64,000 nt of DNA from NCBI GenBank assembly GCA_038227375.1, contig JBBRPY010000008.1, forward strand, positions 4,178 to 68,177. The letters are read 5' to 3'. A program made the translations under genes and the position numbers. Below, in pieces: positions 3,646 through 59,742 of the stretch. The stretch comes from Dehalococcoidia bacterium (GTDB lineage Bacteria; Chloroflexota; Dehalococcoidia; DSTF01; JACRBR01). The first letter of the stretch is position 1. Each line of letters opens with the position of its first letter. The notes beneath the pieces are model-generated. The model had not been told where the DNA came from. It ran no database searches and saw only the letters and a program-made list of their open reading frames with translations.

Positions 3646-4767
3646 GTGGGAAGCGGCGGTGGCATCCTCGATCGGATCATGGACAGGCGCCAGTTCATCG
3701 GCGCCGTCGGCGTCACCGCTGGCGCGGCGGCGCTCACGCTCGCGAACACCCAGTGCGACTCCGCGCTCGTCCGCAAGATCCAGCAGCAGAAGACCGCCAC
3801 CCCGCCGCGCCACCGCGCGTGGGTCTGGCAGTTCTCGGCCGACGGCCGCCCGGAGCAGATCGCCGCATCCCTCGCCGCCGATTCGTGCGGCGTGATGATG
3901 AAGACGCACGATGGCCTCGAGTGGATGTCGACCTACGACCATACGCCTGACGCAATCACCGGGCCGCAGCAGGTCCAAACCGTCGCGTCGATCTTCGAAC
4001 GGAACGGCGTGCCGTTTCACGCCTGGTCGGTGATCAAGGGCATCGATCCGGTGCGCGAGGCGCAGATGGCGGCCGATGTGCTCGCCGCCGGCGCCCGCAG
4101 CCTGACGCTCGATCTCGAGGGCTCGTCGGGCTTCTGGGTTGCAGGAGCAGGCGAAGCGCAGCGCTTTGGCGACGAGCTTCGCCGGCTGACGCCGTTCGGC
4201 CGCGTCGACATCTCGATCGACCCGCGTCCGTGGCGGATCAACCTGGTGCCGATGAACGAGTTCGTCGTTTTCACGGACGCGATCCTGCCGCAGCTCTACT
4301 GGGACACGTTCGACAGCGGGCCGAACATCGACGGCTATCGGCGGAGCGGCTACCCGCCGCCGAATGGCATGTCGCCGGAGTTCCTCCTCGATGCAACGGC
4401 GTCCGTGCTGGCGCAGTACAACCGCCCGATCCTGCCGGTGGGGCAAGGGGCGGCGGCCGACCCGGCCACGTGGCCGCGGTTCGCGCATCGCGCCTGGGCG
4501 CTGCAGATGGAGTCGATCTCGGTCTGGCGGTACGGCGTCACGCCGACGCAGACGCTGCGCTACCTCGGCCTGAACCCGCCCGGCCAGGAGCCACAGGCAC
4601 CGCCAGCAACACCGACGCCGCAGCCCAGCGCGACGGCGCGTCCGAATGCGACAGCGACGCAGGCCCAGACCAGCACGCCAAGCCCCAGCCGCACCGCGCG
4701 CCCGACACGGACGCCGACGGCGACGGACACGCCGCTCGCGGTCAGCACGCCTCCGCCAACACCGTAA
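3646..4767 (+). CDS. Tat-signal secreted hypothetical protein with Pro/Thr-rich C-terminal tail
   Basis: GTG start 6 nt after AAGGAGG. A twin-arginine motif (RRQFIGAVGV) is followed by a hydrophobic stretch. The C-terminal ~70 aa are a low-complexity P/T/A linker. Confidence 0.6.
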   Translation: MGSGGGILDRIMDRRQFIGAVGVTAGAAALTLANTQCDSALVRKIQQQKTATPPRHRAWVWQFSADGRPEQIAASLAADSCGVMMKTHDGLEWMSTYDHTPDAITGPQQVQTVASIFERNGVPFHAWSVIKGIDPVREAQMAADVLAAGARSLTLDLEGSSGFWVAGAGEAQRFGDELRRLTPFGRVDISIDPRPWRINLVPMNEFVVFTDAILPQLYWDTFDSGPNIDGYRRSGYPPPNGMSPEFLLDATASVLAQYNRPILPVGQGAAADPATWPRFAHRAWALQMESISVWRYGVTPTQTLRYLGLNPPGQEPQAPPATPTPQPSATARPNATATQAQTSTPSPSRTARPTRTPTATDTPLAVSTPPPTP

Positions 4768-4921
4768 CCTCGGCGGCCTTGAGGTTGCGACTCGTGCGCG
4801 CGGCACGGCGGCCGCGCACCGCTGTCAATATCCGCATGCGCATCGCCCGATGGCGTGATGAACCTAAGCTGCGGGCTGCGTAGAATGATGCGCCCGGTGG
4901 CTTCTCGCCGGGCTCGGGGGG

Positions 4922-6589
4922 ATGATGACGTCTGAGGCTCCGTCGGCAAGTGTACTGGTGGGTGCGCGCAGGCTCGTTGAGGAAGCCGAGGCGGGTGCGG
5001 CGGCGGCGGTCGCGCGAGCGGCGGAACGCACGCGCGGCGGCGCCGACATCGACGCCCACCAGGTGCTCTGCGAGCGGCTCGCGATGCTGGCGACGGAGGC
5101 CCGCGCCGCGCGGTCGCTCCTCGGCTACGCCGAGCGGCTGGCCGCGTCTGGCCGCAGTGACGGCGTCGGCGACGACGAAGCGTTCGCCTACGCGGCCGAG
5201 GTCGCGCACAAGATCCGGGGGCTTCGCGAGGCACATCCGGACGATTTCGCCGCACTGCCGCCGCCGGACGACGGCGTCCGGGAGCTCATCCGCGCCGGGC
5301 TCGACGACGCGCGGCTGCGCGGCATCGGCGAGCGGGTGATCGCCTCGCGTGCGGTGAATGCGGTCGAGCTGGAGAACGACGACGCCGCGCAGACGCGCTC
5401 GTTCGCGCGCCAGTTCGCCCGCCAGGAAGTGCTGCGCGAAGAGGACGGGATGGCGCTCGCCGACCGCATCCATCGCGAAGACCTGCTGATACCGGAGTCG
5501 CTGATCAAGCAGTTTGCCGAGCTCGGCTTCTTCGGCAGCTCTGTCCCTGATACCTATGGTGGCACCGAGATGGGCTACCTGACGATGATCGTGCTGACCG
5601 AGGAGCTGTCGCAGGCGTCGCTGATCGCCGGCAGCCTGCTGACGCGCTCGGAGATCCTGGCGCGGGCACTGCTCGAAGGCGGCACGCAGCGGCAGAAGGA
5701 GACGTGGCTGCCGCGGATCGCGACGGGCGAGGTGCTCGTCGGCATCTCCGTGACCGAGCCGGACGTCGGGTCGGACGTCGCCTCCGTGCAGTGCAAGGCG
5801 ACACCTGGCGAGGTTGCCGGGAACAAGGGCTGGCTGCTCAACGGCGCCAAGGCGTGGGCAACCTTCGCCGGCCGCGCGAACGTGCTCGCGCTGCTGGCGC
5901 GGACCGATCCCGACGTGAGCAAGGGCTACGCCGGGCTGTCGCTGTTCATCGTCCCGAAGGACGCCTTCGAAGGCCACAAGTTCGAGTTCCGCCAACCGGC
6001 GGGCGGCGTGCTGACGGGCGAGGCGATTCCGACGCCGGGCTATCGCGGCATGCACTCGTACATCCTGAATCTGGAAGACTTCTTCGTGCCCGCCGAGAAC
6101 CTTGTCGGCGAAGACGGCGGCGTCGGGCGCGGATTCTATCTCACCCTCGGCGGCTTCGCTATCGGCCGGCTCCAGACGGGGGGCCGGGCGCTCGGCGTCG
6201 CGCAGGCGGCGATCGAGAAAGCGTGCGCGTACACGACGCAGCGGGTGCAGTTCGGCAAGCCGATCTCGGAATACCAGCTCACCCAGTACAAGGTCGGCCT
6301 GATGGCGACACGCATCGCGGCCGCGCGCCAGCTGACGTACGACGTCGCCCGGACGACCGACCCGCGCGCGCGTGCGCCGCTTGGGCCGGCGATGGCGAAG
6401 CTCTTCGCATCCGACGTCGCCGTCTGGGCGACGCAGGAGGCGCAGCTCCTGCACGGCGGCTGGGGCTACGCTGAGGAGGACCGGATCAGCCGATACGTCG
6501 CCGACGCGCAAGTGCTGCCGATCTTCGAGGGCGTAAAGGCGACGCTGGAGCTGAAGGTAATCGCACGCGCGCTCGTGGCTGCGCCATGA
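4922..6589 (+). CDS. acyl-CoA dehydrogenase family protein with N-terminal extension
   Basis: ACAD core motifs are present (GSxVPxxYGG, TEPDVGSD, YAEEDRISRY..IFEG). A GGGGGG tract lies upstream of the tandem ATG ATG start. Confidence 0.85.
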   Translation: MMTSEAPSASVLVGARRLVEEAEAGAAAAVARAAERTRGGADIDAHQVLCERLAMLATEARAARSLLGYAERLAASGRSDGVGDDEAFAYAAEVAHKIRGLREAHPDDFAALPPPDDGVRELIRAGLDDARLRGIGERVIASRAVNAVELENDDAAQTRSFARQFARQEVLREEDGMALADRIHREDLLIPESLIKQFAELGFFGSSVPDTYGGTEMGYLTMIVLTEELSQASLIAGSLLTRSEILARALLEGGTQRQKETWLPRIATGEVLVGISVTEPDVGSDVASVQCKATPGEVAGNKGWLLNGAKAWATFAGRANVLALLARTDPDVSKGYAGLSLFIVPKDAFEGHKFEFRQPAGGVLTGEAIPTPGYRGMHSYILNLEDFFVPAENLVGEDGGVGRGFYLTLGGFAIGRLQTGGRALGVAQAAIEKACAYTTQRVQFGKPISEYQLTQYKVGLMATRIAAARQLTYDVARTTDPRARAPLGPAMAKLFASDVAVWATQEAQLLHGGWGYAEEDRISRYVADAQVLPIFEGVKATLELKVIARALVAAP

Positions 6590-6721
6590 GAGTCGCCTAG
6601 CCGGAGTCGATGAAGTGGGAGATGAGAACTGAGGCAGGTAGGTTTGACGTGTCCTCGACGACCGATGACCGACGACCATCCGCCCCAGCCGCAAGCGACC
6701 AATAACCAGGAGACTAACGAG

Positions 6722-7750
6722 ATGTATATCATGCAGAAGCAGGGCCGGATCGTCATCCCGCGGACGGAGCTGACGTATCCGTGCCACACGCTGAAGATGA
6801 ACGAGAAGGCGGCGGCGGCGCCTGTCGACCACGTGATGCCGGACTTCGAAGACGCGTGCCCGTACGAGTTCAAGGGTGACGCATCGCGCAAGGTGCTGGT
6901 CGAGGCGCTGAACACGATCGACTACGGCACGAAGGTGATCGCGATCCGCCCGAACAACATCCGGTCGAAGTACTTCCTCGGCGACGTGACGGCGATCATG
7001 CTCGGCGCCCCCGACCGCTTCCACGGCATCATCCTGCCGAAGACCGAGAGCGGGGAGGACATCGTGCACCTGTCGCGGCTGCTCGACGCGCTGGAGGAAC
7101 AGGGCGGCTGGACGACGCACGTGCAGATCGAGGCGCTGATCGAGACGCCCTTGGCGGTGGTGAACGCGTACCAGATCGCGAAGGCATCCTCGCGAATGGC
7201 CGGCCTGATCTTCGGCATCGCCGACTTCAGCTCCACCATGGGCGTGCGGGAGATGATCGACAACCAGAACCGGAACTTTCACTACGCCAAGCAGGCGACG
7301 GCGGTCGCGGCGAAGGCGGCGGCGCTGCACGTCATCGATAACGCCTACCTGCGGCTGATCCGCCCGGACACCGCGCCAGACGAGGCGGAGGCGATCAAGG
7401 CCGGTCTGCGGGAGAAGAACATCGGCTCGCGCGACCTCGGGATGGACGGCACCTGGGTGATCCATCCGAACCAGGCGGAGATTGCGAACGAGGTGTTCAC
7501 GCCGGACGACGAGCAGATCGCGAAGACCAAGCGATCGCTCGAGGTGTACCACCGGCTCGGAGGGGGTTCGATCGCGGACCCGGAGACAGGCGAGTTCTAC
7601 GACGAGGCCACGACCAAAGGGATGCTGATGGACCTCGCCAAGGCGGTGCAGGCGGGCAAGGTCTCGGCCGAATACCTGGCGGAGCTTTCGGACAAGTCGA
7701 AGGCGGTCTCCGGTTACGACATCCTGGAGGTCATGGGGCGAGTGGCGTGA
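6722..7750 (+). CDS. HpcH/HpaI aldolase / citrate-lyase beta (CitE)-like CoA-ester lyase
   Basis: ATG at 6722 lies 9 nt after AGGAG. The pattern of similarity (ILPKTES.., IEALIET..AV.N, GIADFS) matches CitE and malyl-CoA-lyase family proteins. Confidence 0.75.
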   Translation: MYIMQKQGRIVIPRTELTYPCHTLKMNEKAAAAPVDHVMPDFEDACPYEFKGDASRKVLVEALNTIDYGTKVIAIRPNNIRSKYFLGDVTAIMLGAPDRFHGIILPKTESGEDIVHLSRLLDALEEQGGWTTHVQIEALIETPLAVVNAYQIAKASSRMAGLIFGIADFSSTMGVREMIDNQNRNFHYAKQATAVAAKAAALHVIDNAYLRLIRPDTAPDEAEAIKAGLREKNIGSRDLGMDGTWVIHPNQAEIANEVFTPDDEQIAKTKRSLEVYHRLGGGSIADPETGEFYDEATTKGMLMDLAKAVQAGKVSAEYLAELSDKSKAVSGYDILEVMGRVA

Positions 7751-51017: not shown

Positions 51018-51752
51018 ATGAGTGTGAAGGTGGTAATCCTGCCGGATGCCCGTGCGTTAGCGGTGGCGGCCGCCGATGCCGTCTGCGCCGTTGTCCGGAG
51101 GAAGCCGGATGCCCGCCTCGGACTGCCGACGGGCGGCACGCCGATCCCGACATATGAGGAACTGCGGCAGCGTGAATCGAGCGGCGATGTCGATTTCTCG
51201 CGCGGCGTCATCTACGCGATCGACGAGTTCGCCGGTCCATCGTCTAACACGCCCGGCACGAACACCGCGTTCTACGAGGAGCACCTGCGCATTCACCCCG
51301 CCGCGCTGCACTGCCCGCGTTCCGACGCACCCGATCCCGACGCCGAAGTGCAGGCGTATGCCACCGCCATGCGCCGGGACGGCGGACTGGACCTGTGCCT
51401 GCTCGGCATCGGCTTGAACGGACACGTGGCCTTCAACGAGCCCGGGTCGTCGAGCGCGAGCAGGGCCGCCGTCGTGCCGCTCGCGGAATCATCACGCGCG
51501 GCGTACGCCGATGCCTTCGGGTCGCTCGACCGCGTGCCCCGGCTCGGGATGACGCTGGGGATCGCGGACGTGCTCGAATCGCGCGTGCTCGTCGTCCTTG
51601 CGCAGGGTGCCGAGAAGGCGGTGATCGTCCGAGCCGCGATCGAGGGTCCGGCGACGGACGCCGCGCCGGCCTCGTGGCTGCGGCTGCACGCCGACGTCAC
51701 GTGGCTGGTCGACGCTGCCGCGGCATCGCTACTTTCGCCGCGCGCGTCGTGA
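51018..51752 (+). CDS. nagB: glucosamine-6-phosphate deaminase / 6-phosphogluconolactonase family protein
   Basis: The LLGIGLNGHVAFNEPGSS motif matches the NagB active-site region. The start is chosen as the inner ATG 51018. Confidence 0.7.
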   Translation: MSVKVVILPDARALAVAAADAVCAVVRRKPDARLGLPTGGTPIPTYEELRQRESSGDVDFSRGVIYAIDEFAGPSSNTPGTNTAFYEEHLRIHPAALHCPRSDAPDPDAEVQAYATAMRRDGGLDLCLLGIGLNGHVAFNEPGSSSASRAAVVPLAESSRAAYADAFGSLDRVPRLGMTLGIADVLESRVLVVLAQGAEKAVIVRAAIEGPATDAAPASWLRLHADVTWLVDAAAASLLSPRAS

Positions 51753-52381
51753 AGACATCCTGGCCGCGCCCGATCGGCGGCTTGTACGTGATCATCGACC
51801 CGGACGCGTGCCTGGGGCGCGCTCCAGCGGAGGTGGCGCGGCTGGCGCTGGAGGGCGGCGCCGCGATGCTGCAGTGGCGCGACAAGCGCCGTAATATGGC
51901 CGATCAGCTCGCGTCGGCGCTGGCGATCGCCGCGCTCTGCGAGGAGCACGGGGCCATCTTCATCGTCAACGACCACCCTGACCTTGCCGTGGCTTCGAGC
52001 GCACACGGCGTGCACCTTGGCCAGGGAGATCTGCCGATCGGAGCCGTACGGCCGATCGTGGGGGCGGACGCGACCATCGGCGTCTCCACCAACAATGCGG
52101 AGGAAGCGCGCGCGGCTGAGCGAGCGGGCGCGGGCTACGTCGCAGTAGGGGCGATCTTCCGCACGGCGTCGAAAGCGGTCACGCGGGAAGCGAACCTCCA
52201 GCGGCTGGCGGAAGTGAAGGCGGCGGTCGCCGTGCCGGTGATCGCGATCGGCGGCATCGGCGCGTCGAATATCGCGAGCGTCATCGCTGCTGGCGCCGAT
52301 GGTGTCGCCGTGATCAGCGCCGTCTGTGGCGCCGCTGACCCGCGCGCCGCTGCGGCGGAGCTGGAGCGGGCGTTTCGCTAA
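51749..52381 (+). CDS. thiE: thiamine-phosphate synthase
   Basis: The GTG start overlaps the nagB stop (GTGA). ThiE motifs are present (YVIIDPD, LQWRDK, GVHLGQGDLP, AVGAIF, AIGGI). Confidence 0.85.
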   Translation: MKTSWPRPIGGLYVIIDPDACLGRAPAEVARLALEGGAAMLQWRDKRRNMADQLASALAIAALCEEHGAIFIVNDHPDLAVASSAHGVHLGQGDLPIGAVRPIVGADATIGVSTNNAEEARAAERAGAGYVAVGAIFRTASKAVTREANLQRLAEVKAAVAVPVIAIGGIGASNIASVIAAGADGVAVISAVCGAADPRAAAAELERAFR

Positions 52382-52384
52382 CCA

Positions 52385-53410
52385 ATGGCGCACCGAAGCG
52401 CCTCATCTTCTCGCTCATCTCCGCACGGGATAGACTGGCGCCGTCAGGAGGCGATCATTCTTCGGATATTCAAGCGCACGCAGGAAGCCGACGAGAAGAC
52501 CGAGCAGGCGCTGGAACGCACCCGCACGGGATGGTTCAAGAACATCTCCGGTCTCTTCGACCGTAGCAAGATCGATGACGAGATCTGGGAAGAACTGGAA
52601 GAGCTGCTGATTGGCGCCGACACTGGCGTCACCACGACGCAGAAAATCCTGCGTGACGTGCAGTTGCAGGTCGACAAAGAGCGGATCAAAGACGCAGCCG
52701 ACGTGCGCCCGATTCTGCAGCAGTGCCTTGTCGGCATCCTGCAGAGCGGCCGGGAGAAGGGCCGCATCTGGGGCGAGGAGGATCCGCCACCGGCTACCCG
52801 GCCAGTGGTCATCCTGATCATCGGGGTGAACGGCACCGGGAAGACGACAAGCGTCGCCAAGCTGGCGCAGGCGTACCGCGAGGACGGTGCAAAGGTCGTA
52901 GTTGCCGCCGCCGACACCTTCCGCGCTGCCGCCATCGAGCAGCTCAAGAGCTGGGGTGAGATCGTGGGGGCCGATGTCGTCGCACACAAGCAAGGCGCCG
53001 ACCCCGGGGCCGTCGTCTTCGATGCGCTGACCGCTGCCGAGAGCCGGGGCGCCGAGGTCGTGCTCATCGACACGGCGGGCAGGCTACACACGAAGTTCAA
53101 CCTGATGGAAGAGCTGGGCAAGATCCGGCGCGTCATCGAGCGCAAGGTGCCTGAAGGGCCGGATGAAGTGATGCTTGTGCTGGATGCCACGACGGGGCAG
53201 AACGCCCTCGTCCAGGCGACGGCGTTCGCCGAGGTCGTCCCGATCACGGCGCTCTGCCTGACCAAGCTCGACGGCACATCCAAGGGCGGCATCGTCTTCG
53301 CCGTGTCGGACCAACTGCAGATTCCGGTGCGGTTCATCGGCACCGGCGAGAAGCCGGAGGACCTGACGCCGTTTGATGCGGAGGAGTTCGTCGCCGCCCT
53401 CTTTCACTAG
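52385..53410 (+). CDS. ftsY: signal recognition particle receptor FtsY
   Basis: The NG domain has GVNGTGKTTS, DTAGR and TKLDG motifs. The true start may be downstream of the internal GGAGG at 52447, possibly at a non-ATG codon. Confidence 0.9.
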   Translation: MAHRSASSSRSSPHGIDWRRQEAIILRIFKRTQEADEKTEQALERTRTGWFKNISGLFDRSKIDDEIWEELEELLIGADTGVTTTQKILRDVQLQVDKERIKDAADVRPILQQCLVGILQSGREKGRIWGEEDPPPATRPVVILIIGVNGTGKTTSVAKLAQAYREDGAKVVVAAADTFRAAAIEQLKSWGEIVGADVVAHKQGADPGAVVFDALTAAESRGAEVVLIDTAGRLHTKFNLMEELGKIRRVIERKVPEGPDEVMLVLDATTGQNALVQATAFAEVVPITALCLTKLDGTSKGGIVFAVSDQLQIPVRFIGTGEKPEDLTPFDAEEFVAALFH

Positions 53411-53521: not shown

Positions 53522-56356
53522 ATGAGCGAAGCAATTCGGTGGTGGCTCGTACTCCAGCTCGTAGCGGTTGCGCTGCTACCGCTGTGCCTCACGCTGTTCC
53601 GACGCCTTCCGGACCGTGGCTACGCCCTCTCGAAGCCGTTTGGGCTGCTGTTCACCGGCTATCTCTTCTGGCTTCTCAATAGCCTGCACATCCTGCCAAA
53701 TTCGAATGGTGGCGTGCTCGGCGCGCTCTTCCTGCTCGCGCTAATCTCGGGCGTGGTCGCCTATCGCGAGCGTGACGGGCTGATCGACTGGGGCCGGACG
53801 CATTGGCAGTACATCGTCGGCGTCGAGCTGCTGTTCCTGCTGGTGTTCGGCGTGGCCGTCTGGCTGCGGTCGCTGGTGGGGCAGATCAACGGCACCGAGC
53901 AGCCGATGGACCTGATGTTCATCAATGCGGCCACAGTCGCCGACCACTTCCCGCCGAAGGATCCGTGGCTCTCGGGCCACACCGTCGCCTACTACTACTT
54001 CGGCTACCTCCTCGTAGCGATGACCGGGCGTCTCGCCGGCGTCGCCACCGACGTCTCCTACAACATCGGCCTGGCAATGATCGCGACGATGGCGCTCGTC
54101 GGCGCCGCAGGCGTCGTCTACAACCTCGTGCAGATGCGGGAGAGCGCCGTGGCCGAACCCGCCGGCGATCCCGGCGGCGAGCGCGAGCGGAAGCCGGCGC
54201 GGGTGAAGCGGCCGCGGGGGGCGCCCGCTGGCGCGAGCGCGTCGTACTACGCCGTGCTCGGCGTCGGCGCGCGGACCGCCGACGCCGAAATCGAGCGCGC
54301 CTATCAGCGCCTAGCCGGCCGCCTGCGCCCGGCGGCGAGCGCGGGCGACGAGCGGGCGGCGCTACGCCTGAACGATGTCCAAGCGGCGCACGCGGTGCTC
54401 TCCGACCCGGAACGCCGCCGCATGTACGATGCCGGAGCTCCCGTCAACGGCGCGGGTAGCGCGGCATCGAGCGCGGCGCCGACGGCCGCCGAAGTAGTGC
54501 GAGAGCCCACCCCTGATGCTCCGGCCGCGCCTGTGACGATGTCGGTGCCCGCGGCGCTGCGGAACTGGCGGCCGCCGCTCTTCGGCCTCGCTGGTGGCCT
54601 GATGCTGGTGGTCATGGGGAATCTGGTCTGGGTGCTCACGTTCGCCTCTTCGTACGGCATTGGTGGCAAGACTTTTTACGATTGGGTAGATGTTTCGAAC
54701 CTCCGCCCTGACGAGCCGCGCGACAGTTGGTATCCATCGCGATTCTTCCTCTTCTTCAACGCCTCCCGCGTCTATCCGCTCGATAACAAAGATTTTCGTG
54801 TGATCACCGAGTTCCCCATGTTCAGCTTCCTGCTCGGCGATCTGCACCCGCACGTGATGGCGTTGCCGTTCGTCCTGCTCGTCGTCGGGGCAGCCCTCGC
54901 CCTCTACCGTAGCGACGAGCCGCTCGACATCACCTACTGGATCCAGCGGCCACTCGGCCTGATCGCTGGAGGGGTGCTGATCGGCGGGCTCGCGTTCCTC
55001 AACACATGGGACATCGCTACGCTTGCGTTCCTTGTGGTGGCGGCCGCATTCGTCAGCAACTTCGCGCGCTTGCGCGCGATCACGGTCGACCTCTTCGTCC
55101 AGATCATCTCCTTCTCGTTGCCGCTGTTGATCCTCGCGATCCTGCTCTATCTGCCCTTCTACACGAGCTTCGCATCGCAGGCGAATGGCATCGGCGCGGT
55201 CGTGTCGAACCAGGCGATCAAAGTGCCGGCGACGCGGCCGTTCCACGCGCTTCTCTTCTGGGGGCCGATGTTCACCATCGTGACGCCGTTCGTCGCCGCT
55301 CGCCTGATCGTGGTGCGCGACCGCATCACGCCTCTCCTCGCCGCGCTCGCGGCGGCGCTACCGCTGGCGGTCGTCGCCGGGTGGGCGCTCTTGTTCCTCT
55401 ACGAGAAGGCGAAGGGCAGCGACAAGCTCGGCGCTGGTTCCGGCAGCCTTGCGACCCAGATCGCCGACCGCGGCTCGGCCTGGCTGACAGCGCTGGCGAT
55501 CGGCCTCATCCTTGCCGGAGCACTGCTCGCGCTCTGGCTGGACCTGACGGCGCGCGACGAGCGTAGCGAGCGGGAGAGCCCGATCTTCGCCCTGCTGCTC
55601 ACGGCGACGGCGACGTTGCTGATCTTCGGCACCGAGTTCTTCTACGTCGGCGACGTCTTCAACTCCCGCATGAACACCGTCTTCAAGCTCTACTACCAGG
55701 CGTGGATGATGCTGGCGATTGCCTGCGCATTCGCACTCTATTACCTCACAACGAACTGGCGCCCCGTGTTTCCCCACTGTGCGGGCTACAGGGCAGTGTG
55801 GGGCGTCGCGGCGGCGGTTGTGCTGGTTGGGGCCGCGCTCTACCCGCTCGGTGGCGGCTTCAATCGCACGCACGACGAGAAGGGGAAGCTGGCCGAATCC
55901 AATGGCTCGCTGCATGGCATCCATTTCTACGCGCAGGACGAGCGGAACGCCATCGGCTGGCTGAAGGACCGCGCGCAGGGGCAGGATATGGTGATCGCTG
56001 AGGCTGTCGGGAACGATTACACACCGGCGGGCCGCATCTCGGAGTCGACGGGCGTGCCGGCGATCCTCGGCTGGCAGGGGCACGAAGACCAGTGGCGAGG
56101 CGGGAAGTGCGGGCCGTGCAACGGGCGCTTCGAGGATGTCAACAAGCTCTACACCGCCACTGATGCGGCGGCGATCGCGCCGATCGTGCAGAAATACAAC
56201 CTGACCTTCATTTACGTAGGAGATTTGGAGCGCCGGACATACGGCGACGCAGGGATGGCGAAGTTCAAGGCGATGCAAGTAGCGTTCCAATCGGGAACCG
56301 TTACGATATACCGGGCAAAAGGTGCAGCAGTAAGCGAGGTTGAGGCGGCCCAATGA
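53522..56356 (+). CDS. DUF2298 ('Chlor_Arch_YYY', TIGR03662-like) polytopic membrane protein with an inserted HPD-less J-like domain
   Basis: The VAYYYFGYLL 'YYY' motif is present, with many TM helices. Residues ~240-305 (SYYAVLGVGARTADAEIERAYQRLA...VLSDPERRRMYDAG) resemble a DnaJ J-domain but carry RPA in place of HPD. Confidence 0.8.
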   Translation: MSEAIRWWLVLQLVAVALLPLCLTLFRRLPDRGYALSKPFGLLFTGYLFWLLNSLHILPNSNGGVLGALFLLALISGVVAYRERDGLIDWGRTHWQYIVGVELLFLLVFGVAVWLRSLVGQINGTEQPMDLMFINAATVADHFPPKDPWLSGHTVAYYYFGYLLVAMTGRLAGVATDVSYNIGLAMIATMALVGAAGVVYNLVQMRESAVAEPAGDPGGERERKPARVKRPRGAPAGASASYYAVLGVGARTADAEIERAYQRLAGRLRPAASAGDERAALRLNDVQAAHAVLSDPERRRMYDAGAPVNGAGSAASSAAPTAAEVVREPTPDAPAAPVTMSVPAALRNWRPPLFGLAGGLMLVVMGNLVWVLTFASSYGIGGKTFYDWVDVSNLRPDEPRDSWYPSRFFLFFNASRVYPLDNKDFRVITEFPMFSFLLGDLHPHVMALPFVLLVVGAALALYRSDEPLDITYWIQRPLGLIAGGVLIGGLAFLNTWDIATLAFLVVAAAFVSNFARLRAITVDLFVQIISFSLPLLILAILLYLPFYTSFASQANGIGAVVSNQAIKVPATRPFHALLFWGPMFTIVTPFVAARLIVVRDRITPLLAALAAALPLAVVAGWALLFLYEKAKGSDKLGAGSGSLATQIADRGSAWLTALAIGLILAGALLALWLDLTARDERSERESPIFALLLTATATLLIFGTEFFYVGDVFNSRMNTVFKLYYQAWMMLAIACAFALYYLTTNWRPVFPHCAGYRAVWGVAAAVVLVGAALYPLGGGFNRTHDEKGKLAESNGSLHGIHFYAQDERNAIGWLKDRAQGQDMVIAEAVGNDYTPAGRISESTGVPAILGWQGHEDQWRGGKCGPCNGRFEDVNKLYTATDAAAIAPIVQKYNLTFIYVGDLERRTYGDAGMAKFKAMQVAFQSGTVTIYRAKGAAVSEVEAAQ

Positions 56357-59300
56357 GCGTCCAGGAACCCAATATCCCGTACGGCGGCGGCACGACCGCC
56401 GACCGTCTCAAGACCATGACGATGAACGCCGAGACGCGCGAGCGGATCAGCGTGCTCGCGTCACGGTACTGGGAGCCGGCGTCGTACGCGGTGCTCGTCA
56501 TCTTCGCCGCGGTCCTGCGCTTCTACAATCTCGGCGCGCGCGCCATGCACCATGACGAGAGCTTGCACGGATTCTTCAGCTACGGCTTCACGAAGGGCGT
56601 CACCGACCTCTTCACCTTCAACGGACCGTCCGACACCTACAAGCACGTGCCGTTCATGCACGGGCCGTTCCAGTTCATCGGCAACGGCTTTATGATGGCC
56701 ATCTTTGGCGATGGTGAATACCAGGTCCGGATGATGGCGGCGACACTGGGCACGGCGATGGTCTTCATGCCGTTTCTTCTCCGGAAGCAGCTGGGGACGG
56801 TCGGAGCGCTCGCCACCGCCGTCTTCATCGCCGTTTCCCCCACGCTGCTCTACTACAGCCGGTTCACGCGCGAGGACATCTACGCTGCGTTCTGGACCTT
56901 CGGCCTCGTCATCTTCATGTGGCGGTACATCGCCACAAAGCAGGACCGCTACCTCATCCTCACGGCGGGGTTCCTCGCGGGCTCCTTCCTCACGAAAGAG
57001 ACGACGTTCATGACCGCGGCGGCGTTCATCGGCTTCATGGACTTCCTGTTCGCGCTGCACATCGCCGACAAGATCCGCGCCAAGTCGACGACGATCACGC
57101 CGCTGAAGTACACGCTGCTGGTCCTGGCGCTGCTGCCGGGGGCGCTCGCGATCGCTATCGGCTGGCCGTTCATCGAGAATTGGCGAAAGAAATACGACCT
57201 CGACGAGATGCCGCCCGCGGCGAACCTGGTCATCGTGCTGGGCACCCTCTCGCTGCCGCAGTACGCGGCCGGTATTCAGTTGCTGCCTGGGTTCGGCAAG
57301 GAGTGGCGGAACCGGGCAGGCGACACCGGCAACTATCACATCGCCGATGCCGAGTTCCGCGTCGCGATGGTCTCGATCTTCGCGCTGATCGGCGTCTCGA
57401 CGGCGATCGGTGTCCTCTGGCGGCCGAAGACGTGGCTGATCGCCGCAGCCGCGTTCTGGATCCCTTTCATCCTGCTCTACACAACGTTCTTCTCGAACCC
57501 TGCCGGCTTCTTCTCCGGCATCTGGGGTTCGATGGACTATTGGATTAGCCAGCAGGATGTGCGTCGGGGCAATCAGCCGGACTATTACTACTTCATCACG
57601 ATCCCGATCTACGAATTCCTGCCGCTCGTGCTCGCGCTCGCCGCCGGCGCCTACTACGCCGTGCGCGGCAAAGCGCGCAATGCGATCTTCGTCGGCGCCG
57701 GCCTGCTCGCGATCATCCTGCTGCTGCTCCTGCCGCCCGGACCGGACGTGCAAAAGGTGTCGTTGCTGCACATCGTGCTGCCGTTCAGCATCGTCCTGCT
57801 CGGCATCTTTTCGTTCCAGATGGATGTGTTGAACCGGTTCTTGCTGTTCTGGACGGTGATTACCGCGTTTGCGCTCACCGTCGCAGGCGAGAAGATGCCG
57901 TGGCTGAACGTGCACATCGCTCTGCCGCTGGCGGTGGTTGCCGGCCGCTTCGTCGGGGAGATGGTCGAGAACACGGATCTCCGTTCGGACCTGCCGAAGC
58001 TGGAACGGCTGGCGCCGTTCGTCTACGCGGCGATCGCTTCCGCCATCGCGATTCTGGTGTTCCTCGTCGTCGGCCCGCTGTCGTTTGCGTCGATCGGCGG
58101 ATGGTTGCTGGTCGTCGTAGCTGCGTTCGCCGTGTACTGGGCGTACAGCGGCTACAGCCGGCACACCGCCGCGCAGGTCGCACTTGTCGGCCTCGTCGCC
58201 GCGCTCTCGATGTTTACGCTGCGCGTGGGCATTTTTTCATCGTGGGGGCACCCGAACCCGAACCCGCTGCTCAAGGGCGGCGTGCTGGCGACGCGCGACT
58301 ATGGCGAAGTGCCGGACGAACTGCTGGTCTACACGCAGACCTCCGGCGACATCCCCGTGCTGCGCGACCGGATCGACCAGTACGCCAAGGAAAGCGGCCT
58401 CGGCGACAAGACGCCGATCGTCGTCGATTCGAGCGATGGCTACACCTGGCCGTGGGCGTGGTACCTGCGCAACTATACAGCCGTGCAGTATCCCCAGATC
58501 GGCTCGAACTTCCAGCCGCCGCCGAATTCGATCGTGCTGGCAAACAAGAACAACGCGAACAACGTGCAGACGGGCGGGCAGTACGCCGAGCCGGTCACCT
58601 ACCATCACCGGCGCTGGTTCCCCGAGGAGTACCGCGGCGCCGATGGCAAGTACTCGTCGCGTGATTTCTTCCGCGGCCTCTTTTCGCTGAGCCAGTTGAA
58701 CAGCTGGCGCAAGTACTTCGTGGAGCGCATACCGCCGGGCGAGCTCGGCACCGTCGACGGCGTCGCCTTCTTTCCGAAGGGGTTCTCGAACGTGCCCACT
58801 GTGCCAGTCGGGCCAACGGTGCGCACGGAGGGCACCCAACTCGTCATCGGCTCATCGGGCTCGGCGCCGGGGCAGCTCAACGGCCCCTCGGATGTTGCAT
58901 TCGACTCCGCCGGCAACATCTACGTCGCGGATACCAACAACAACCGCATCGAGGAGTATTCGCCTACCGGCGAGTTCAAGGCAGTCGCAGGCGGATTCAG
59001 TTCGCCGGACGTGGTCCTGAATCAGCCGTGGTCGATGACGGTCACCTCCGATGGCACGGTGTTCGTCGCCGATACTTGGGACCACAAGATCGTCAAGCTC
59101 GACAAGAACCTCAAGAAGGTGAAGGAGTGGGGTGGCGGCGGCCAGGTCGAAGCAAACGGCGACCCGTTCAAGCTCTTCGGCCCGCGCGAGATTGCCCTGA
59201 CGGCGGACGGCCATCTGCTCGTCGCCGACACCGGCAACGGGCGGATCATCGAGTACACGCAGGACGGCGACCTCGTTCGCCAGTTCGGCGCGAAGGGCAA

Positions 59301-59742
59301 ATCCGGCGACCCGCTGCAGTTCGACGAGCCGGTCGGCGTTGTCGCCGGGCCAACGGGCGACATCTACGTGGCCGACTTCTGGAACCAGCGCATCGTCCAC
59401 CTCGACAAGGATCTGCGTTCCAAGGGCGAGATCAAGATCCCGACATGGGGCAGCACAAGCGTCACCGACCGCCCGTACATGGCGCTGCTCATCGATGGCC
59501 GCTTGCTGGTCACCGATCCCAATCCCTGCACGTCGGCGCCAACCTGTCCGACGGCGCAGGACGGCAAGGTGCTCGTGTTCGATGCGGCGGGCAGTCCGGC
59601 CGGGAGCTTCGATCTGCCGAAGGAGCCCGGCAGCGCCGTCGTGCGCCCCGTAGGCATCGCTTCGGACGGCACGTCGGTGCTCGTGGCGGACTCGTCCGGT
59701 CAGGTGGTCCGAAAGATCCCGCTGAGTGAGATTGCGAAGTAG
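56353..59742 (+). CDS. GT-C-fold glycosyltransferase-like membrane protein (TIGR03663/PMT-ArnT-like, HHDESLH loop motif) with C-terminal NHL-repeat beta-propeller
   Basis: The ATG overlaps the previous stop (ATGA). The first periplasmic loop motif NLGARAMHHDESLHGFFSY is present, with ~13 TM helices. The C-terminal ~330 aa carry repeated GxxxxPxGVAxDxxGNIYVAD NHL repeats. Confidence 0.8.
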   Translation: MSVQEPNIPYGGGTTADRLKTMTMNAETRERISVLASRYWEPASYAVLVIFAAVLRFYNLGARAMHHDESLHGFFSYGFTKGVTDLFTFNGPSDTYKHVPFMHGPFQFIGNGFMMAIFGDGEYQVRMMAATLGTAMVFMPFLLRKQLGTVGALATAVFIAVSPTLLYYSRFTREDIYAAFWTFGLVIFMWRYIATKQDRYLILTAGFLAGSFLTKETTFMTAAAFIGFMDFLFALHIADKIRAKSTTITPLKYTLLVLALLPGALAIAIGWPFIENWRKKYDLDEMPPAANLVIVLGTLSLPQYAAGIQLLPGFGKEWRNRAGDTGNYHIADAEFRVAMVSIFALIGVSTAIGVLWRPKTWLIAAAAFWIPFILLYTTFFSNPAGFFSGIWGSMDYWISQQDVRRGNQPDYYYFITIPIYEFLPLVLALAAGAYYAVRGKARNAIFVGAGLLAIILLLLLPPGPDVQKVSLLHIVLPFSIVLLGIFSFQMDVLNRFLLFWTVITAFALTVAGEKMPWLNVHIALPLAVVAGRFVGEMVENTDLRSDLPKLERLAPFVYAAIASAIAILVFLVVGPLSFASIGGWLLVVVAAFAVYWAYSGYSRHTAAQVALVGLVAALSMFTLRVGIFSSWGHPNPNPLLKGGVLATRDYGEVPDELLVYTQTSGDIPVLRDRIDQYAKESGLGDKTPIVVDSSDGYTWPWAWYLRNYTAVQYPQIGSNFQPPPNSIVLANKNNANNVQTGGQYAEPVTYHHRRWFPEEYRGADGKYSSRDFFRGLFSLSQLNSWRKYFVERIPPGELGTVDGVAFFPKGFSNVPTVPVGPTVRTEGTQLVIGSSGSAPGQLNGPSDVAFDSAGNIYVADTNNNRIEEYSPTGEFKAVAGGFSSPDVVLNQPWSMTVTSDGTVFVADTWDHKIVKLDKNLKKVKEWGGGGQVEANGDPFKLFGPREIALTADGHLLVADTGNGRIIEYTQDGDLVRQFGAKGKSGDPLQFDEPVGVVAGPTGDIYVADFWNQRIVHLDKDLRSKGEIKIPTWGSTSVTDRPYMALLIDGRLLVTDPNPCTSAPTCPTAQDGKVLVFDAAGSPAGSFDLPKEPGSAVVRPVGIASDGTSVLVADSSGQVVRKIPLSEIAK

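Follow-up and report, generated by a model that had tools for sequence, protein, structure and literature searches.

An HPD-less J-like domain in a probably cytoplasmic loop of a DUF2298 membrane protein of Dehalococcoidia

We analysed a 64,000-nucleotide stretch of the genome of a Dehalococcoidia bacterium (contig JBBRPY010000008.1, positions 4,178 to 68,177; hereafter the window), in which a polytopic membrane protein of 944 residues, a member of the DUF2298 (Chlor_Arch_YYY) family, carries a segment related to the J domain of DnaJ within one of its loops. The segment is a J-domain homologue that has lost the HPD tripeptide, is confined to certain lineages of the family, is held by purifying selection and is predicted to keep the complete J fold. 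With a probability of about 0.6, we read it as a type IV pseudo-J domain that would be inert toward Hsp70 and has been kept as a tethered cytoplasmic interaction module on a GT-C-like enzyme.

A J-like domain interrupts a DUF2298 membrane protein

The features of the host gene to which the text refers are as follows (window coordinates).

53522-56356, plus strand: host gene, 944-residue DUF2298/Chlor_Arch_YYY polytopic membrane protein of GT-C-like fold (open reading frame, Pfam, TIGR03662, AlphaFold2, Foldseek)
54047-54133, plus strand: transmembrane helix preceding the loop, residues 176-204, closing at the conserved YNLVxMRE boundary (hydropathy; model helix 176-211; motif in 109 homologues)
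54134-54241, plus strand: N-terminal linker, residues 205-240, Ala/Arg/Pro/Gly-rich and predicted to be disordered (model confidence, identity, dN/dS, composition)
54242-54436, plus strand: J-like domain, residues 241-305, helices I-IV of the J fold (Pfam, phmmer against PDB, AlphaFold2, Foldseek, dN/dS)
54326-54334, plus strand: RPA tripeptide, residues 269-271, occupying the HPD site (aligned with Thermus DnaJ2 and E. coli DnaJ)
54437-54571, plus strand: C-terminal linker, residues 306-350, Ala/Pro-rich and predicted to be disordered, closing at the conserved NWRP boundary (model confidence, identity, dN/dS)
54572-54640, plus strand: transmembrane helix following the loop, residues 351-373 (hydropathy; model helix 346-363)
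55871-56353, plus strand: C-terminal globular domain, residues 784-944, used as an outside marker for topology (Foldseek; charge)

The first-pass annotation of the window had reported a J-like peptide with RPA in place of HPD. The 65-residue peptide (SYYAVLGV...RRRMYDAG) corresponds exactly to residues 241-305 of the open reading frame; the nucleotide span given for it, 54241-54435, was one base off and in the wrong frame, the correct span being 54242-54436. Searches against Pfam-A matched residues 241-303 to DnaJ (PF00226) along profile positions 1-63 of 63 (E 3.4e-13, 49.9 bits, cut-off 27.8), the isolated segment scored 56.5 bits against the same profile, and partial matches to many NCBIfam DnaJ models were confined to the same 65 residues of the host. 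PDB sequences matched by phmmer were J domains only (48 matches at E up to 1), the best being DnaJ2 of Thermus thermophilus (E 1.8e-10), in which HPD aligned with RPA. Since the profile and PDB matches lie far above chance, both the J-like domain and the replacement of HPD by RPA are real. A search of the whole 64-kb stretch revealed no second J domain.

An AlphaFold2 model of the 944-residue protein, built from an alignment of 71 homologues, had a mean predicted local distance difference test score (pLDDT) of 89.5 and a predicted template modelling score of 0.86. Within the segment the model placed helices at residues 242-246, 254-273, 277-293 and 296-303 (pLDDT approximately 93), with helix II continuing through RPA; as modelled, this is the four-helix J fold with its hairpin of helices II and III. 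The modelled domain superposed on solved J domains with a root-mean-square deviation of 1.6-2.0 Å over 61-67 residues (Foldseek; 5nro_B, 2och, 6rzy_A), and 5nro_B is the J domain of E. coli DnaJ bound to DnaK. On either side, residues 219-238 and 312-343 had pLDDT values below 50, so that the domain would form a folded bead on two disordered strings rich in Ala, Pro and Arg.

The first-pass assignment of the host to the DUF2298 'YYY' proteins also held, and its model resembles enzymes of the GT-C type. Against the 944-residue protein, DUF2298 (PF10060) scored 327.8 bits (cut-off 27.8; Pfam-A) in two stretches with the insert between them, and TIGR03662 (Chlor_Arch_YYY) scored 457.5 bits (cut-off 300.25; NCBIfam). 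The YYYxG motif of the family is present as AYYYFGY (residues 156-162), and Y157, Y158, G161 and Y162 were invariant in the 71 homologues aligned. When the modelled membrane part was compared with PDB using Foldseek, the best match was the archaeal oligosaccharyltransferase AglB (5gmy, E 9.3e-4; 7e9s), followed by the C-mannosyltransferase DPY19, AftA, ALG12 and PglB. The C-terminal 160 residues matched the C-terminal globular domain of Archaeoglobus fulgidus AglB (3vu0, probability 0.98-1.00; TM score 0.52-0.54, normalised to the target). Residues E126, D130 and D147, invariant in the 71-sequence alignment and lying in a K/R-poor loop (119-155), are putative catalytic residues of the GT-C type. 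To our knowledge, no function has been defined experimentally for the DUF2298/YYY family.

The HPD site and the Hsp70-facing surface are altered

Residues at the HPD position were compiled for 14 DUF2298-embedded copies and for 199 background J stretches, the latter from the 150 best matches in a library of 1.84 billion representatives. The embedded copies had RPA (four), QPA (three), VAA, RPD, APD, DPR, AAA and RAR (one each), and a deletion in one. HPD was found in 77% of the background stretches and His at its first position in 84%; among the embedded copies both counts were 0/14. By these sequence comparisons the embedded copies form a strongly deviant set relative to background J domains. 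Type IV J-domain proteins, or J-like proteins, are those with a recognisable J domain in which HPD is replaced non-conservatively (PMC13254874), and on its sequence the present domain is one of this class.

The face of the domain that would meet Hsp70 has changed as well. Helix II carries a net charge of 0 in this protein and in 10 of the 14 embedded copies, compared with +3 in E. coli and Thermus DnaJ, and residues R22, K26, M30, R36, K48 and K51 of E. coli DnaJ correspond here to E, Q, G, A, N and Q. Recognition, binding and activation of DnaK are based on the helix II charge and on pairing of the HPD aspartate with DnaK R167 (PMC7289447); HPD is essential, and even changes of H to Q or D to N eliminate ATPase stimulation (PMC13254874). 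Because the HPD histidine and a positive helix II face are both missing, the J-like domain is most likely unable to trigger ATP hydrolysis by DnaK, and the neutral charge of helix II argues against canonical docking on the Hsp70 nucleotide-binding domain. Judged by these residues, the domain is most likely inert toward Hsp70.

The segment is under purifying selection

Among the closest orthologues the J-like segment was 71-77% identical (72-76% overall), close to the 75-88% of the enzyme core. The linkers had diverged far more, the N-terminal one to 14-40% identity with insertions and deletions among close orthologues, and the C-terminal one to 12-23% in clade-1 orthologues and 11-30% across the nine carriers compared. 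Approximate ratios of non-synonymous to synonymous substitution rates (dN/dS; Nei-Gojobori, three gene pairs) followed the same division, with 0.12-0.21 in the segment, 0.07-0.16 in the core and 0.40-1.03 in the linkers (N-terminal 0.66-1.03, C-terminal 0.40-0.75). Fifteen positions were conserved in at least 12 of the 14 copies, namely Y7, L10, G11, V12, I21, A24, Y25, A43, A53, V56, L57, D59, R63, Y66 and D67 (E. coli numbering), most of which we take to be fold-core residues of J domains. As read from these substitution patterns, the segment is under purifying selection and is being maintained, not decaying. The pattern of selection across the 14 copies indicates that the J fold has been kept while Hsp70-facing residues have been released or changed. 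Simple decay, and with it the degenerate structural insert that was one of two possibilities offered in the first-pass annotation, is disfavoured, since the segment is as strongly constrained as the core of the enzyme. As to the other possibility, recruitment or mimicry of chaperone interactions, canonical Hsp70 activation is likewise disfavoured by the missing His and the neutral helix II described above.

The loop probably faces the cytoplasm

In the 71-sequence alignment the density of Lys and Arg alternated loop by loop, with the J loop on the K/R-rich side. From the J loop onward the densities were 0.15, 0.06, 0.18, 0.00, 0.13, 0.05, 0.32, 0.09, 0.18, 0.11 and 0.21, followed by 0.10 in the C-terminal domain (residues 784-944), which is net acidic. 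Insert-free orthologues have a short Arg/Lys-rich turn at the site of the J loop, for example MRESAEPAKAARRFNWRP. Hydropathy and the AlphaFold2 model gave 11 hydrophobic helices between the J loop and the C-terminal domain, and in oligosaccharyltransferases the AglB-type C-terminal domain is established as external. Because the J loop lies on the K/R-rich side and is separated by 11 helices from the AglB-like domain, it is probably cytoplasmic, in agreement with the first-pass prediction. The loops with invariant residues (119-155, 364-435, NTWD at 494-497 and GDVFNSRMN at 707-716) all lie on the K/R-poor side, which is where GT-C active sites are located. The K+R pattern also suggests an external N terminus for the host, and a short helix 160-172 that stops short of crossing the membrane. 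TM1, EL1 and TM2 of the GT-C core may correspond, respectively, to helix 95-118, loop 119-172 and helix 176-204, an assignment that would place the insert within the first cytoplasmic loop of that core.

The CxxC pair (GKCGPCNG, residues 858-861, about nucleotides 56093-56104) lies within the C-terminal globular domain of the host. It is kept in the host clade and in its nearest insert-free relatives (e.g. TCKPCAG in P0010), and farther orthologues have AKARAG in its place (e.g. P0009). Such a pair would suit a domain that lies outside the cytoplasm and may be disulfide-bonded.

The insert is lineage-specific and patchily distributed

The stretch from YNLVxMRE to NWRP ranged from 22 to 176 residues in 109 near-full-length homologues. 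Scores of a hidden Markov model (HMM) built from the J-like segments fell into two groups: 13 of 120 proteins reached 83 bits or more, and none of the others exceeded 1 bit. The insert was missing from 96 of the 109 full-length homologues and from 78 of the 80 best GTDB species-representative loci (all Chloroflexota metagenome-assembled genomes), where it was present in L003 and L016 only; an insert-free orthologue in identical synteny (L002, P0010) has a loop of 23 residues. At least 14 carriers were found, a count that is a minimum. The same in-frame architecture recurred in 14 independent assemblies (NCBI, JGI, ENA, Logan) at 57-100% identity, and a 100% identical protein is present in NCBI. 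By comparison with its homologues, the insert is lineage-specific and not a general feature of DUF2298 proteins, the first of these being a possibility that the first-pass annotation had raised.

A neighbour-joining tree of the hosts was built with the loop removed (768 columns; L016 and the partial P0100 left out), a crude tree from which we claim only that the distribution of carriers is patchy. Monophyly of the carriers was rejected, as it appeared in 0 of 100 bootstrap replicates. P0001-P0007 grouped with 100% support, joined weakly (45%) by P0008; P0019 and P0066 grouped with 81% support, P0033 lay elsewhere, and the carrier P0024 was nested among insert-free proteins with 94% support. 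In this tree the carriers occupy at least four positions.

Two states are nevertheless common to all 14 embedded copies, the absence of His at the HPD position (84% His in the background) and Leu or Ile at the position of F47 (16% of the background). The chance of each shared state is about 1e-4, by hand arithmetic that treats the host lineages as independent. Together these states point to either a common origin of the insert or convergence. There may have been one old insertion of a domain that was already, or soon became, HPD-less, with many later losses from a loop prone to deletion; alternatively, the same derived state may have been selected repeatedly across host lineages. Similarity does not decide between single and multiple origin, because the identity of the other DUF2298-embedded J-like domains to this one (37-46%) does not exceed that of generic J domains.

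An exhaustive phmmer search with the J-like segment returned 14,271 J-domain matches. The DUF2298 carriers were not among the 50%-identity library representatives so matched, and the nearest matches were ordinary HPD J domains (45-56% identity), so no donor family can be named. A word-indexed homologue search with a 70-residue J-like segment gave 13 candidates, none significant, the word index failing on such composition, and one with residues 176-380 gave two weak matches only. Recent horizontal insertion found no support, as the G+C content at third codon positions (GC3) was 0.86 in both the segment and the whole host gene.

No half-decayed J-like intermediates were found by the HMM scan of the 120 proteins or by BLASTP. 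The MLIAQRTRRMAP loops of the insert-free proteins P0031, P0043, P0044 and P0055 were considered as decayed J remnants and rejected (HMM scores of -4.8 bits or below, BLASTP E 1.1); their motif is (M/S)L(I/V)(A/R/Q)QR(T/S)RRMA(P/Q). In many insert-free orthologues the same loop (residues 205-350 in the window protein) has an Arg-rich run followed by AV(A/S/P)xGE(Q/R/H)GA; these include P0009, P0021, P0030, P0032, P0039, P0041, P0068 and P0082. No relation could be demonstrated between these short motifs of insert-free orthologues and the J-like domain. To judge by such motifs, the loop may be a general site of short cytoplasmic interaction motifs. The 14th carrier, with RAR at the HPD position, is L016 (positions 4000-6900; metagenome-assembled genome MFD02199.bin.2.91, CAVTNG010000010.1), in which the DUF2298 gene is fragmented across all three frames; its frameshifts reflect either long-read assembly error or a pseudogene.

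Gene neighbourhood

The genes on either side of the host gene are:

52385-53410, plus strand: ftsY, signal recognition particle (SRP) receptor, upstream (open reading frame; conserved neighbour)
56353-59742, plus strand: downstream gene, 1129-residue membrane protein of TIGR03663 (Agl23-like, PMT_2) with C-terminal NHL repeats (NCBIfam)

The downstream open reading frame scored 242.5 bits against TIGR03663 (cut-off 126.25; NCBIfam), and a neighbour of this family is the association given in the TIGRFAM description of the YYY family. The stop codon of the host gene and the start codon of the downstream gene overlap as ATGA (56353-56356), and from this arrangement the pair looks translationally coupled. 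DUF2298 and Agl23-like genes were paired at loci with and without the J-like insert. Agl23 of Haloarcula has been reported to be a flippase for lipid-linked sugars (PMC11182771).

The gene order conserved on related Chloroflexota contigs, both with and without the insert, is smc, ftsY, DUF2298, PMT_2/NHL (TIGR03663, Agl23-like), LPG_synthase_TM, amine oxidase, nuoE and nuoF. It is common, from smc to nuoF, to the carrier locus L001 (P0002) and the insert-free L002 (P0010), with six additional genes between smc and ftsY in L001; the two are orthologues that differ by the insert. An SRP54-family gene occupies the ftsY position in L001, in the P0024 contig and in insert-free L002. Adjacency of ftsY was considered as a functional clue to the insert and rejected, since the same synteny is found in the insert-free orthologue. 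In the window, thiE (TMP-TENI family) and ftsY lie upstream of the host gene (51395-53410).

Competing explanations

We propose that a complete J fold was inserted into an ancestrally very short cytoplasmic loop of a DUF2298/YYY GT-C-like membrane protein, where it would be tethered by two disordered linkers of 30-45 residues each. With its HPD histidine lost (the site reads RPA here) and, in this lineage, the positive face of helix II lost too, the domain would have ceased to activate DnaK, and the fold would have been retained to serve the enzyme as a cytoplasmic module for docking of proteins or for regulation. At the mitochondrial import motor the J-like domain of Pam16 pairs with the J domain of Pam18 (PMC13254874; PMC3196505), and the HPD-less J-like domain of CJD1, a membrane protein, binds that of ARC6 (PMC3196505). 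Docking or regulation is the most likely role and, by analogy with these pairs, a second domain of the J or J-like type could be the partner.

Several points weigh against this proposal, and some of them favour a working non-canonical J domain that recruits, stimulates or holds DnaK, for example for substrates or for membrane protein assembly. The fold is predicted to be intact and superposes closely on the DnaK-bound J domain of DnaJ; Pro-Asp is retained in two lineages (RPD in P0019, APD in P0024) and a positive helix II in two copies (P0033, +6; P0100, +3), so that, going by sequence, residual DnaK contact may persist in those lineages. A designed J analogue without HPD still stimulated Hsc70, and ICP22 of herpes simplex virus, also without HPD, pulls down Hsc70 (PMC13254874). 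However, His is missing from all 14 copies and Asp from this lineage too, helix II is neutral in 10 of the 14, conservative HPD changes suffice to eliminate stimulation (PMC13254874), and the J-like domain of CJD1 neither bound Hsp70 nor complemented a dnaJ cbpA strain (PMC3196505); we consider DnaK recruitment unlikely. The remaining points against our proposal are more general. Selection may act merely to prevent an inserted domain from misfolding and doing harm, rather than on an interaction, and dS was close to saturation (0.9-1.4), which makes the dN/dS values approximate. The grounds for the topology are the positive-inside pattern and the parity of helices, with the first five or six helices ambiguous. 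The AlphaFold2 output carries no docking information on the J-like domain, and nothing carrier-specific, and no binding partner, was found in the window or the conserved neighbourhood.

It is also conceivable that the insert is a neutral passenger or decaying relic in a permissive, hypervariable loop, merely not yet deleted. The loop accommodates 22-176 residues, mostly of low complexity, the carriers are scattered over the tree in a manner that fits frequent loss, and HPD, the defining motif of J-domain function, has been lost. A passenger would nonetheless not be expected to have a dN/dS on a par with the core between linkers near neutrality, nor identities of 71-77% between linkers at 12-40%; fold-core residues are kept in at least 12 of 14 carriers even though the lineages are only 37-46% identical in the segment, and half-decayed copies are missing. 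This explanation is improbable, if slightly less so than DnaK recruitment. As doubtful as the latter is an autoregulatory plug, in which the domain docks on the transmembrane part of its own protein, or on the co-encoded Agl23-like one, and thereby controls access of the lipid-linked donor, or flipping: two linkers of 30-45 residues would hold it near the cytoplasmic face, and the gene appears translationally coupled to that of a protein from a family implicated in the flipping of lipid-linked sugars, yet in the same operon the majority of orthologues function without such a domain. An artefact, whether from chimeric assembly or from a frame error mimicking a fusion, can practically be dismissed. 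The sequences do come from metagenome-assembled genomes, and L016 is full of frameshifts, but the in-frame architecture recurs in the 14 independent assemblies, segment and gene agree in GC3, and DUF2298 sequence flanks the segment on both sides inside a single open reading frame. DnaK recruitment, passenger and plug all rank below the Hsp70-inert pseudo-J module.

A bacterial counterpart of Pam16, in which the J-like fold docks a true J protein (with DnaK) or a J-like protein onto the cytoplasmic side of an extracytoplasmic glycosylation machine made of the DUF2298 protein and an Agl23-like flippase, is unlikely too. If true, such docking would tie glycosylation of the envelope to proteostasis in the cytosol or to protein export; selection against activating Hsp70 at this site would then account for the missing His in every independent host lineage, making the loss of HPD adaptive.

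Some library proteins combine J and J-like domains in one chain. P0142 (141 residues), P0198 (160), P0185 (127) and P0155 (148) consist of a J domain with HPD, a Pro-rich linker and an HPD-less J-like domain, the latter having RPA or QPA at the HPD site, or a gap there; for three of the four, the window segment matched the HPD-less second domain best. From their sequences, the four look like single-chain pairs of a J and a J-like domain, and P0142, P0198 and P0185 hint that pairing of J with J-like domains exists in prokaryotes. A further library protein, P0123 (679 residues), has six tandem near-identical J domains, all with HPD, and repeated linkers; it ranked top in the library solely through summed repeat scores.

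Relation to known systems

In the literature searched we found no description of a J-like domain in a DUF2298 protein, 'DUF2298' occurring in unrelated papers only; the two-domain architecture is already visible in precomputed Pfam annotations of database proteins. In itself the finding is a variant of domain architecture, in which the J-like domain sits in a new host protein at a new position. HPD-less J-like domains are a recognised and poorly understood class, and orthologous enzymes with and without the domain in the same operon offer a natural comparison and a tractable system for the role of the J fold once Hsp70 activation is lost. The domain also provides a cytoplasmic handle on DUF2298/YYY, a large GT-C-like membrane family of Chloroflexota and Archaea, and its partner could yield the first functional lead on these proteins.

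The host is a full member of DUF2298/TIGR03662 by its HMM scores, its YYYxG motif and the adjoining TIGR03663 gene, and differs from most homologues in having the insert. DjlA of E. coli, a membrane-anchored J protein on the cytoplasmic face, is linked to envelope polysaccharide (colanic acid/Rcs) signalling; it has a single N-terminal anchor and a C-terminal J domain with HPD, is DnaK-dependent and, unlike the DUF2298 host, has no enzyme-like membrane domain. In the polytopic membrane protein Sec63 the J domain, which has an intact HPD and activates BiP in the endoplasmic reticulum lumen, also lies in a loop joining two membrane-spanning helices. Sec63 is thus an architectural analogue, a J fold tethered to a membrane machine; the present domain differs in having lost HPD and in its predicted cytoplasmic location.

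Closer in the state of the motif is Pam16/Tim16, which likewise has a recognisable J fold with HPD replaced non-conservatively and is presumed unable to stimulate Hsp70. Pam16/Tim16 is a separate small subunit, whereas the bacterial domain is internal to a polytopic enzyme-like protein, and no Pam16/Tim16 chain was among the 48 PDB sequence matches at E up to 1; the likeness would be a functional analogy only, with no specific sequence relation. Like the present host, CJD1 and ARC6/Ftn2 are integral membrane proteins whose J-like domain lacks HPD; theirs faces the stroma or the cytoplasm. They belong to photosynthetic lineages and are unrelated to the host, and the CJD1 domain is N-terminal to three transmembrane helices, whereas the present one is inserted between helices of an enzyme-like protein of about 16. 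By analogy, CJD1 offers the best functional precedent for an HPD-less J-like domain at a membrane.

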